Below are positions 6,971 to 9,434 of a stretch of DNA of 64,000 nt, one piece after another; the stretch's first letter is position 1; the number at the start of each line of letters is the position of its first letter. The position numbers were made by a program, and so were the translations under genes. The stretch covers positions 431,237-495,236 of the forward strand of contig CBDCWP010000021.1 in the NCBI GenBank assembly GCA_965223505.1. The letters run 5' to 3'. Under the pieces are notes generated by a model. The model did not search any database, had not been told where the DNA came from, and saw only the letters and a program-made list of their open reading frames with translations. The DNA is from Planctomycetota bacterium (GTDB taxonomy: Bacteria > Planctomycetota > PLA2 > JAEUHO01).

Positions 6971-7921
6971 TCAATCCCAGAGCGACGCGAGCGAGTACGG
7001 CGATCCTTCCGGCGCCCAGAAGCTGCCGTCGATGTAGCGGTGGCCGGCGTCGAGCGCCAAGATCTGCGTCATGTCGTCTTCGTCGAGCTCGAGCGACGCC
7101 GCGGCGAGGTTCTGCGCCATGCGCTCTTTGTTGACCGACTTGGGGATCACGCTCGTTCCGCGGCAAACGGCCCACGCGAGCAGCACCTGTGCGTGGGTGA
7201 CGCCGTGTCGCGCCGCCACCTCGCCGATGACCGGGTGCGTCAGCAGATCGGGGTCGTCTGCCTTGCGCAGCACCTCGGGCCGGTCCGGGGAGCCGAGCGG
7301 CGAGTAGGCCGTGACGTGGACACCGCGCTCGGCGCAGCGGGCGAGCAGGTCCTCTTGCGCCAGGTAGGGGTGCAGCTCGACCTGGTTGACGGCGACGGGA
7401 ACCTCGGCTTGGTCGGCGAGCGCTTCGACCTTCTTCGCGCTGAAGTTCGAGACGCCCAGGTGCCGCACCAGTCCGCCCTTCTTGCACGCCTCCATCGCAC
7501 GCCAGGTCTCCAGCAACGGAACCTCGTCGAGGCTCACGAGATCGGCCGCCGACTCGGGAAAGAACACGCCCGGCTTCAACGCGACCGGCCAGTGCATCAG
7601 GTAGAGGTCGAGCTCGTCGAGCTTCAGATCCCCGAGCGTCTTCTCGAGCGCGGGACGCACGTCGCTCTCGCGGTGCGCGTCGTTCCAGAGCTTGGAGGTG
7701 ATGAACAAGTCCTCGCGTGTGACGTCGCCGTCCTCGATGGCCGCGCGAATCGCCTCGCCGATCTCGGCTTCGTTGGCGTACGCCGCGGCGCAGTCGAAGT
7801 GCCGGTAGCCGAGGCGAATCGCCGTTCGGATGACGGGTGCGACCTCGCCGGGGTCCGACTTCCAGGTGCCGAGGCCCAGGGCGGGAATGGTGCCACCGTC
7901 CGACAGGTCATGGTGCTTCAC
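6971..7921 (-). CDS. Aldo/keto reductase
   Basis: LGLGTWK, GYRHFDCAAAY, FITSKLWN, DLYLMHWP, GVSNF, IPKS; GTG 7921 after GAGGAG. Confidence 0.95.
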   Translation of the reverse strand: MKHHDLSDGGTIPALGLGTWKSDPGEVAPVIRTAIRLGYRHFDCAAAYANEAEIGEAIRAAIEDGDVTREDLFITSKLWNDAHRESDVRPALEKTLGDLKLDELDLYLMHWPVALKPGVFFPESAADLVSLDEVPLLETWRAMEACKKGGLVRHLGVSNFSAKKVEALADQAEVPVAVNQVELHPYLAQEDLLARCAERGVHVTAYSPLGSPDRPEVLRKADDPDLLTHPVIGEVAARHGVTHAQVLLAWAVCRGTSVIPKSVNKERMAQNLAAASLELDEDDMTQILALDAGHRYIDGSFWAPEGSPYSLASLWD

Positions 7922-8042
7922 GGGAGCTCTCCTCTCGCCCGCGTTGTACTCCGGAACCGAGCGTCGAATGAAGTCCTTGCCACGACGAAGGAACACGACG
8001 CGTTCCACGCGCGTCTCCTGGTTTCGCGAATGGAGGTGCGCC

Positions 8043-8294
8043 ATGTCCAGACGAAACAGCCCCGACGATCTCCCGTCCTTTCGATCGGACGAGCAAGCGT
8101 AGAAGGGGGTTCCCTTCCGAGACCCGCGTCGGCCGCGGCGTGCGCGTGGTGCACGGCAACAAGGAGCTTCTCGAGAAGCTCGGCCGCAACGACCTGTGTC
8201 CGTGCGGCTCCGGTCGGCGCTTTCAAGCGCTGCTGCCTTCGTAGCGGCCGCTTTCGACGGCTCGCAGCGGAACGACTACTTCCGCGACGAGTGA
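8043..8294 (+). CDS. Small SEC-C metal-binding protein needing three +1 frameshifts (82 aa if fully shifted)
   Basis: GGAGGT SD, ATG 8043; [18 protein letters not shown] split across frames; TTT-C at 8079, 8221, 8252. Confidence 0.8.
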
Positions 8295-8360
8295 ACCTGC
8301 GCTCCACGGGCTCCGGCCCGTGGAGCATGTCTTCGGAACGGCGATCGCTCGAGTCTGCCG

Positions 8361-9434
8361 CTATTTGTCCGTGATCGCCTGAATCTCGGACAATAGCGCG
8401 TCCGCGACGATGCGGTTCCCGAGCTCGTTCCAGTGCGGGTCCCGGTCGAACTGCGTCGGTTCGGACGATGCCAACTTGGGACGCTCGAAGTACGGAACGA
8501 GATCGATGAACGGGATGCCGAGCGTCTCGCACGCCTGCGCCGCACGCTGTCCGCCGTACGGTGCCGCGATCCAGAGCGGCAGCGAGTGCTCGCCGCAAAG
8601 ATCGCGCAGTCGTTCATAGACGAACTCGAGGGCGACTTGCTCGTCGTCCTCGAAGCGGGCCGGTAGCGCAGGCGCAGCTCCGGACGCCGGCACCACTGCC
8701 GGCTGATCGGTCCGACGTGCCGCACTGACGTAGAAGTGCAGGTAGTTGTAGACCATCGAGTTGTTGACCAGCCAGCCCTCGATCGTGCGTCCGAACTGCT
8801 GCTCGACTTGCTCGTTCTCGATGCGTGCCCGGCCGTTCTCGACGACGACGTACGGCCGCGTGCGCCGAACATCGACGTTCTCCCCTGCGTCGTTGTGGCA
8901 GAACATCAGGAGCACCGCATCCGGCCGTTCGCCGCGATCGAGGCGCTCGCGCAAGAGCAAGTACTCCTGCAGCGAGGAGTACCCGGGCGCACCCAGGTTG
9001 CGGTACACCCGGCCGTCCGAACCCAGATTCATGTGATCGACCCAGGTTCGACCGTCCCGTACACCCCAGCCCCACGTCAGCGAGTCGCCGAGGCACCACA
9101 CCACGTCGACCGTGGACGTGGCATCCTCGGCGATGCGCGACCCGATGTTGCAGCGGCGAAAGCCGTCTTCGTCGTGCGTGATCTCCACGTCGAACTCCGT
9201 CGTGGTGAATCGGGCATCGGCATCGGGACGTCCGACCCAGCCGATACGGGGATGGAACTCGAAGTAGGCGACGAGCACCGTGGGGGTGCGCGGTGCGACG
9301 CCGGCGATGCGCAGGCCGACCTCCGCGAGCAACACGACGAACAGGAGCGAGCCGAGAAGCAACCCAACCCGTGCCGCGACGTATCGAACGCGTGACAGGA
9401 GCCCCTTCTTCGGTATCGGCTCCGACGCGTTCAT
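8361..9434 (-). CDS. Membrane-anchored SGNH/GDSL hydrolase family protein
   Basis: LGDSLTWG, NLGAPGYS, HND, DPHWN. Confidence 0.9.
   Translation of the reverse strand: MNASEPIPKKGLLSRVRYVAARVGLLLGSLLFVVLLAEVGLRIAGVAPRTPTVLVAYFEFHPRIGWVGRPDADARFTTTEFDVEITHDEDGFRRCNIGSRIAEDATSTVDVVWCLGDSLTWGWGVRDGRTWVDHMNLGSDGRVYRNLGAPGYSSLQEYLLLRERLDRGERPDAVLLMFCHNDAGENVDVRRTRPYVVVENGRARIENEQVEQQFGRTIEGWLVNNSMVYNYLHFYVSAARRTDQPAVVPASGAAPALPARFEDDEQVALEFVYERLRDLCGEHSLPLWIAAPYGGQRAAQACETLGIPFIDLVPYFERPKLASSEPTQFDRDPHWNELGNRIVADALLSEIQAITDK

Follow-up and report, generated by a model that had tools for sequence, protein, structure and literature searches.

The bacterial gene for release factor 2, prfB, shifts frame at a CUU_UGA site that has an internal Shine-Dalgarno (SD) sequence at a set spacing, and argI is another case of +1 slippage, at UUU_Ynn. 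prfB is a chromosomal gene in which a short zero-frame ORF leads up to a P-site tRNA that re-pairs in +1, often at a stop codon, and its frameshift is described as a sensor (PMC5009743). The same source describes UUU_Ynn as especially +1 prone in bacteria, with slippage in YopN-TyeA and pheL presumed to reflect re-pairing of tRNA-Phe, and in a cell-free screen UUU is given as one of the most shift-prone P-site codons (10.1101/2025.10.02.679949). Several shifts per gene are needed in Euplotes and some mitochondria, where they correct indels in many genes through permissive machinery (PMC5009743). The regulatory +1 frameshifts that we found described in bacteria have one fixed site each.

Here we analyse a small gene in a 64,000-nucleotide stretch of DNA from a Planctomycetota bacterium (the window) and the family to which it belongs. 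Like prfB it is a bacterial chromosomal gene with a short zero-frame ORF, and at some sites of the family GAGG lies 3 nt upstream. However, prfB has one fixed site, an obligatory stop and known autoregulation, whereas the family carries 2-5 serial, movable Phe sites; we considered a prfB-type autoregulatory frameshift (a single CUU_UGA with internal SD and an RF2 product) and rejected it. The UUU_Ynn cases share the tetramer but are single-site and low-level and yield a minor fusion or incidental product, while the shifts of the family appear to be obligatory and repeated and are conserved across phyla. The influenza PA-X site UCC_UUU_CGU resembles the first window site, UCC-UUU-CGA, but involves a eukaryotic ribosome, one site and a minor second product. 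In contrast to Euplotes and mitochondria, ordinary genes of the host read UUU-C in frame and the design is seen in one family. The chemistry of the sites is already known, but we found no description of serial, movable and count-conserved gating of a bacterial gene: full-text searches, which covered mostly open-access papers, gave no account of the family.

The window gene is split by three frame changes

A first-pass annotation of the window had proposed a gene with a strong SD and an ATG at 8043, three TTT codons at 8079, 8221 and 8252 (each C-TTT-C in the frame set by the preceding shift), stops ending at 8102, 8244 and 8294, and TTC at the two remaining Phe codons. We confirmed each of these elements in the sequence. 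The layout is as follows, in window positions.

8032..8037, + strand: Shine-Dalgarno sequence GGAGGT, 5 nt upstream of ATG 8043
8043..8081, + strand: segment 1, frame 0, residues 1-13
8079..8082, + strand: shift site J1, UCC-UUU-C(GA), TTT at 8079 in frame 0
8083..8223, + strand: segment 2, frame +1, residues 14-60, comprising the basic region and the initial half of SEC-C
8110-8112, + strand: F23, TTC, unshifted, within segment 2
8185..8242, + strand: SEC-C metal-binding motif (PF02810), interrupted by J2
8221..8224, + strand: shift site J2, CGC-UUU-C(AA), within the SEC-C motif, TTT in frame +1
8225..8254, + strand: segment 3, frame +2, residues 61-70, finishes SEC-C
8252..8255, + strand: shift site J3, CGC-UUU-C(GA), TTT in frame +2
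8256..8294, + strand: segment 4, frame 0 regained, residues 71-82 and TGA
8280-8282, + strand: F79, TTC here, shift site J4 in most relatives
8301..8326, + strand: 11-bp GC-rich hairpin directly 3' of the stop (-26.7 kcal/mol for 8295-8345)
6971..8044, - strand: aldo-keto reductase, divergent neighbour (coordinates of the listed ORF; the gene probably begins near 7921)
8361..9434, - strand: SGNH/GDSL hydrolase, convergent neighbour

Read from ATG 8043 in the zero frame, the gene gives a 19-aa peptide halted by TAG 8100-8102, and without the shift at J2 the reading drops the last two Cys and terminates at 8244. When each TTTC is read as one step the product is 82 aa long. The + strand of the whole 64-kb window contains CTTTC 32 times, so three C-TTT-C within 175 nt, all aligned with the codons of the frame then being read, are not a matter of chance. 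A separately assembled contig (X1, record 1; possibly from the same sample as the genome) is identical to window positions 7700-8700, with zero differences or gaps.

The flanking genes lie on the opposite strand and a hairpin follows the stop, which makes the gene look monocistronic. The hairpin is probably the transcript end; it is without a U-run, and the terminator scan made no call there. Across the family, the 60 nt past the stop score z < -2 in 95 of 160 genes. A search for a sigma70-like promoter at the window gene found none, and the reductase and the hydrolase are not kept next to other family copies. Frame +2 is open throughout the gene (7040-8374, + strand), mostly as the antisense shadow of the reductase, and relatives show stops there.

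The first-pass annotation had held that the second shift restores a SEC-C motif. Consistent with this, the read-through product has a full Pfam SEC-C domain (PF02810) at residues 48-66, with four Cys, E 1.6e-9 and 37.9 bits against a cut-off of 20.4. The 82-aa product is basic (21 K+R, pI 10.7). Its N-terminal part has no match in Pfam or NCBIfam, the 8 NCBIfam hits of the product all fall under the cut-off, and the full-length family models of YchJ, YecA and SecA do not fit it. The SecA tail, YchJ and YecA share the SEC-C motif, whereas here the protein stands alone. A fusion search gave no clear fusion: among 7 longer candidates there were 3 hits, two with SEC-C only and one without a domain. 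A fold model of the natural continuous relative P0004, built from a 61-row alignment, was weak (pLDDT 62.5, pTM 0.38), and its fold comparison matched SEC-C peptides only. The metal-binding domain (MBD) of SecA is reported to bind ribosomes and to prefer iron, and SecA-like MBDs to bind iron (10.1101/613315). By homology, the SEC-C domain of the product may bind Zn or Fe.

Relatives in many phyla keep the frame breaks

The family has a patchy distribution over hosts from at least 11 named phyla, and databases contain the gene solely as mis-started or truncated 'SEC-C domain' fragments. From the species-genome scan we took the best 80 of 165 confirmed relatives, and from the metagenome scan the best 80 of 559. 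Among 80 loci kept from viral contigs 3 are clear family members (L194, L195 and L196), two of which lie among many tRNA genes; plasmids gave no family match at E 1e-8. The counting set was assembled from 110 genome loci, minus 12 weak or partial matches, plus 83 metagenome and viral loci, and then minus 13 loci without an anchor and one duplicate, which left 167 genes with the window copy included. A start with an SD-like site is present in 152 of the 167, and these served for the restoration tests; GGAGG stands upstream of the chosen start in 130 of them. Related copies are not independent, so every enrichment figure given below is overstated by kinship among the genes. In the window's phylum the family was found in 18 of 300 other genomes at E <= 1.5e-9, and in samples drawn around the hosts of L073, L045 and L018 it was found in 4/300, 3/299 and 3/150 genomes.

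Many of these records are metagenome-assembled, which could point to sequencing or assembly errors, or to pseudogenes, as the source of the frame breaks. Conservation refutes this reading and leaves it a negligible probability, since the contig is identical in a separate assembly, sites of the same type occur in cultured isolates (e.g. L008 from Massilia, L012, L017 from Marinicella and L073 from Caulobacter), and none of the 152 genes is fully continuous. The scans rank continuous matches first, so their bias runs against finding no continuous copy. Neither the homopolymer over-call nor the uniformly continuous homologues that the first-pass annotation had named as grounds for giving up its proposal were found.

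Reading UUU-Y as a four-base step restores the protein

With the standard code the full protein is obtained from 0/152 genes. When in-frame TTT-Y is read as a four-base step it is obtained from 124/152. We compared 671 step rules, of which the second best was TTT-N (89/152) and the best without TTT restored 13/152; TTT followed by a purine restored 0/152, as did rules based on A, C or G runs. The 28 unrestored genes comprise 8 that use CTT-Y, 3 in which the shift apparently takes place on a Lys codon that follows GGAGG, 9 with an unshifted TTT-C (7 at F23 and 2 at F60), 2 missed by the search pattern alone, and 6 that are truncated, mis-started or otherwise broken. Evenly drawn genome samples supplied further genes: 9/9 need 2-3 TTTY steps, some at a fifth position, F23, and a tenth is without a start site.

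Two variants stand out among the unrestored genes. In L018, L019, L034, L144, L157, L172, L188 and L189, CTT-Y straight after the Cys-Cys pair is the probable shift site, at a position where the window gene decodes CTT-C in frame. In L045, L061 and L078 the frame offset of J2 maps to TTC-AAG-G or TTC-AAA-A, immediately following GGAGG, which suggests a +1 shift at a Lys codon; these three, and L055, have the gene within an rpsU-yqeY-dnaG region.

Coding-type conservation in the shifted frames, which the first-pass annotation had named as support for its proposal, was found in segments 2, 3 and 4. Column conservation at the first, second and third codon position is 0.89/0.91/0.52 in segment 2 (164 genes), 0.73/0.81/0.58 in segment 3 (73 J2-shifted genes) and 0.77/0.87/0.54 in segment 4 (65 J3-shifted genes). 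Each segment thus varies most at the third position of its shifted frame, and a conserved frame break that joins coding segments is a feature of the family.

This pattern also bears on the reading that the full protein is never made, the target of selection being the RNA itself or a fragment translated from an internal start. Some relatives do have an in-frame ATG that opens segment 2 and are annotated from there, and a few copies look decayed (L094, L102 and L290). Against it stand the third-position variation in all three segments and the fact that, for every site, genes that have the extra base and genes that do not encode the same residues. In the window gene there is no Rfam match, segment 2 is without an ATG, and J2 splits the Cys ligands. 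We regard this reading as very improbable. Programmed multi-step +1 frameshifting at UUU-Y, as first proposed for the window gene, is strongly supported by the comparative genomics.

The sites move but their number is kept

The sites of the family lie ahead of the core (J1), within SEC-C (J2), at J3, and ahead of the final Arg-Asp/Glu (J4), so that relatives have shift sites that the window copy is without. F23 serves as a site in L280, L281 and L196, the last of which is without J1. The frame offset from start to core at J1 is +1 in 130, +2 in 17 and 0 in 5 of the 152 genes, and 145 of the 147 offsets match the count of in-frame TTTY steps; among 133 steps at J1, 72 have UCC or UGC as the preceding codon. 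The first-pass annotation had ranked the second shift as the best supported and the first as weaker. In the family, however, J1 is the most conserved site, with 147/152 genes offset. At J2 an extra base is present in 99/167 genes and is part of TTTY in 96 of these 99, and at J3 it is present in 74/167, of which 65 have TTTY and 9 another tetramer, mostly CTTY.

Restored genes use 2 (18 genes), 3 (91), 4 (14) or 5 (1) steps. The variance of the step total is 0.29, compared with 0.83 for shuffled site columns and 0.53 for the lowest of 5000 shuffles. A need for a net shift divisible by three was rejected, because 33 of the 124 restored genes have 2, 4 or 5 steps. J2 and J3 are both absent from 8/156 genes, against 32.8 expected. 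A tree of the 129-nt core requires a minimum of 15 changes of J2 (shuffles 39-56) and 29 of J3 (shuffles 44-59). The opposite trend of J2 and J3 on this tree was not significant (3.0 opposite and 0.1 same changes, median p 0.25, with 6-7 independent pairs on supported branches). Since the alignment is short and the relatives are not independent, the data only suggest compensation between J2 and J3.

The codon after the site points to ribosomal slippage

We examined the zero-frame codon that would occupy the A site at each step. UAG is in excess at YAG A sites (35 vs 18.6 expected, n=51) and UGA at YGA A sites (57 vs 34.9, n=102), whereas UAA is depleted at YAA A sites (10 vs 26.8, n=78). The Arg that follows J4 is encoded by AGR in 94/122 cases, compared with 99/910 in the core, and this choice of codon puts YAG into the A site. 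A bias towards UAG and UGA and against UAA favours slippage of the ribosome over that of the polymerase. The A-site codon is a sense codon in 234/370 steps. GAGG ends 3 nt upstream of J2 in 14/99 shifted but 0/65 unshifted genes.

Where F23 is unshifted and precedes Pro, TTT is depleted (6 vs 24.2 expected, n=71). The gene does not avoid CCC-Y (34 vs 32.3 and 54 vs 33.3) or CTT-Y (4 vs 4.0), and general +1 slipperiness at CCC-Y was rejected for this reason. A depletion specific to UUU-Y together with the A-site bias fits re-pairing of the P-site tRNA-Phe, and, judged from their sequence, the TTTY sites permit such re-pairing in +1. We found no tRNA-Phe with a four-base anticodon: both tRNA-Phe genes of the window genome (92% complete) and 5 array copies have 7-nt loops.

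Transcriptional slippage usually takes place on a homopolymer run of about 7-9 nt. Loss of the extra base from the RNA, by polymerase slippage or U-deletion editing, would yield the same protein if one U were deleted per TTTY; TTTT is favoured at J3 and J4, and runs of 6-8 T occur at some J1 sites. However, the window sites have three T each, J2 has TTTC in 85 genes and TTTT in 11, which is under expectation, and the rules for other runs restore nothing. In addition, the codon that follows the site in the zero frame is under selection, which is a mark of the ribosome. We therefore consider RNA-level loss of the base very unlikely, if marginally less so than a protein that is never made. The frame breaks are real and conserved, and the slip is very probably ribosomal.

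Ordinary genes of the window genome often carry TTT-C in frame, with TTT at 2014 of the 9781 Phe codons that precede C, so this tetramer is not by itself strongly prone to shifting while cells grow normally. No structure 3' of the shift sites is shared across the family, and no shared upstream motif was found among sigma54, ECF, LexA and CIRCE patterns and k-mers. With UUU-C routinely read in frame and neither a shared structure nor a promoter motif, efficient shifting probably needs a particular state of the cell.

Some copies lie beside RNA-repair genes or in tRNA arrays

Most copies have unrelated neighbours. In 29 of the 167 loci, however, the gene is beside RNA-repair or ribosome-stress genes or in an array of at least 4 tRNAs, while the other 138, including the window, have no RNA-repair gene or array in the flanking DNA examined. 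The recurrent neighbours are RtcB (6 loci), RNA ligase (6), HNH (6) and AAA_33 (5), and rarer ones are TROVE, RlaP and RsgA (2 loci each) and Hen1 and RtcR (1 each). Four or more tRNA genes, with a maximum of 34, are present at 9 loci. The tblastn queries for these neighbours were drawn from the family loci themselves, so that self-hits account for about 9 of the protein matches; across the 5.15-Mb window genome the same queries matched only five places.

In Anabaena, chloramphenicol is reported to induce rtcB and an HNH gene jointly with a tRNA array (PMC8421152); the TrcR regulon to which these belong also includes rsgA, and loss of TrcR, which de-represses the regulon, raises frameshifting (PMC10272220). 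Some family copies lie within such cryptic tRNA L-arrays and some beside RtcB, HNH and RsgA, but most lie outside arrays. In the text available from these two sources the gene is unmentioned, and in that of PMC8421152 the word 'frameshift' is absent. The first-pass annotation had named tRNA-Phe status, slow CGA/CAA decoding and ribosome stress as possible triggers. The neighbourhoods lend support to ribosome or tRNA stress. Slow CGA/CAA decoding is not supported as a signal across the family, because the A-site codon differs among sites (UGA, UAG, CGA, CAA, CAG and UUU).

A possible gauge of ribosome frame-keeping

Our data are best accommodated by the following mechanism, which remains conditional. 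A strong start site would drive a monocistronic gene for an 82-aa basic SEC-C protein. At in-frame UUU-Y, peptidyl-tRNA-Phe(GAA) would slip off UUU and onto the UUY that overlaps it, during the time in which the A site waits on a slow codon or a UAG or UGA stop. Since the full protein requires all slips, its yield would scale roughly as p cubed, being negligible in healthy cells and rising steeply when decoding slows through tRNA cleavage, ribosome damage or ribosome-targeting drugs. The product would probably bind ribosomes or RNA and act as an accessory in RNA repair or in the response to ribosome stress. Both the stress regulation and the job of the protein are inferred. On balance we lean towards a gate that opens under translation stress and controls a helper protein that binds ribosomes or RNA. 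To the same degree we favour the view that the serial, movable UUU-Y shifts form a cooperative gauge of frame-keeping, by which the factor is made only when translation is damaged and selection keeps the number of sites but not their places.

The main rival keeps the same ribosomal shifts but takes the state of tRNA-Phe as the signal, through loss of ms2i6A37 (by way of MiaA or, when iron or oxidative stress prevails, of MiaB, an Fe-S enzyme) or through an unmodifiable array tRNA-Phe. miaA mutants show more +1 slips at UUU. The depletion confined to UUU-Y fits this rival, the window genome encodes miaA and miaB, and some array tRNA-Phe genes lack the A36-A37-A38 loop that MiaA needs (MiaB carries a 4Fe-4S cluster; PMC5699536). 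The increased frameshifting on de-repression of the TrcR regulon would also suit it. SecA-like MBDs bind iron, and a SEC-C product that did likewise would complete the circuit. On the other side, about 8 genes shift at CUU-Y and 3 apparently at a Lys codon, the A-site bias suggests a delay in the A site, and recurring iron-related neighbours were not seen at the family loci. Among five host genomes tested, tRNA counts were 43-54 in four and 73 in the fifth; 4/5 hosts thus have ordinary counts, and we rejected array tRNA-Phe as a generally required activator. Taken together, we find it rather unlikely that tRNA-Phe is the signal.

Nearly as likely as a tRNA-Phe signal is a constitutive dampener, in which shifts at a fixed rate allow a few copies of a harmful or costly protein and nothing is sensed. 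A count near three also suits a tuned set level, the search for a stimulator or promoter motif common to the family found none, and the A-site codons are mixed. However, the strong start is kept in most genes (the 130 with GGAGG), although weakening it would be the simpler way to dampen, and copies are placed in stress-induced operons and arrays.

If true, this would be a new design of gene control, a threshold device made from decoding errors. The family offers hundreds of natural site variants for the study of tRNA-Phe slipping and a ready reporter of translation stress, and it points to an unannotated member of the RNA-repair/tRNA-array response.

Further observations at family loci and in the window genome

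The tRNA gene sets show several irregularities. A 12-tRNA array of the window genome (L274; G000:C40:191174-192297) has a tRNA-Phe with a G32/U38 loop, whereas the housekeeping tRNA-Phe has A37-A38. Array tRNA-Phe(GAA) genes with G37 occur at L038:2125-2199, L046:1380-1454 and L194:2488-2722 (2 of 3 in L194), and the two verrucomicrobial array tRNA-Phe(GAA) genes are without the usual T-loop sequence. At G000:C12:6550-6638 ARAGORN calls a tRNA-Leu with anticodon AAG, which is rare in bacteria, and it calls no Leu(GAG) at the default threshold.

Rfam gave no relevant family on 12 neighbour loci. In L080, where the gene lies between TROVE and RtcB and adjoins RtcR, the region L080:2450-3350 around the gene holds repeat copies, GAATGC-N5-GGRASTACAT / CCTTGTCG, with tRNA-like ends. 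They have no Rfam match and are possibly undescribed Y-RNA-like or tRNA-like elements. Directly 5' of the gene in L008 is an unannotated ORF (L008:1968-2912) that recurs in L011, L012 and L046, two of these four loci having RtcB; it had no Pfam hit in L008 and L012. Finally, a short 16S rRNA-like fragment (L096:1786-1958) lies just 3' of the gene in L096, between two RsgA genes.
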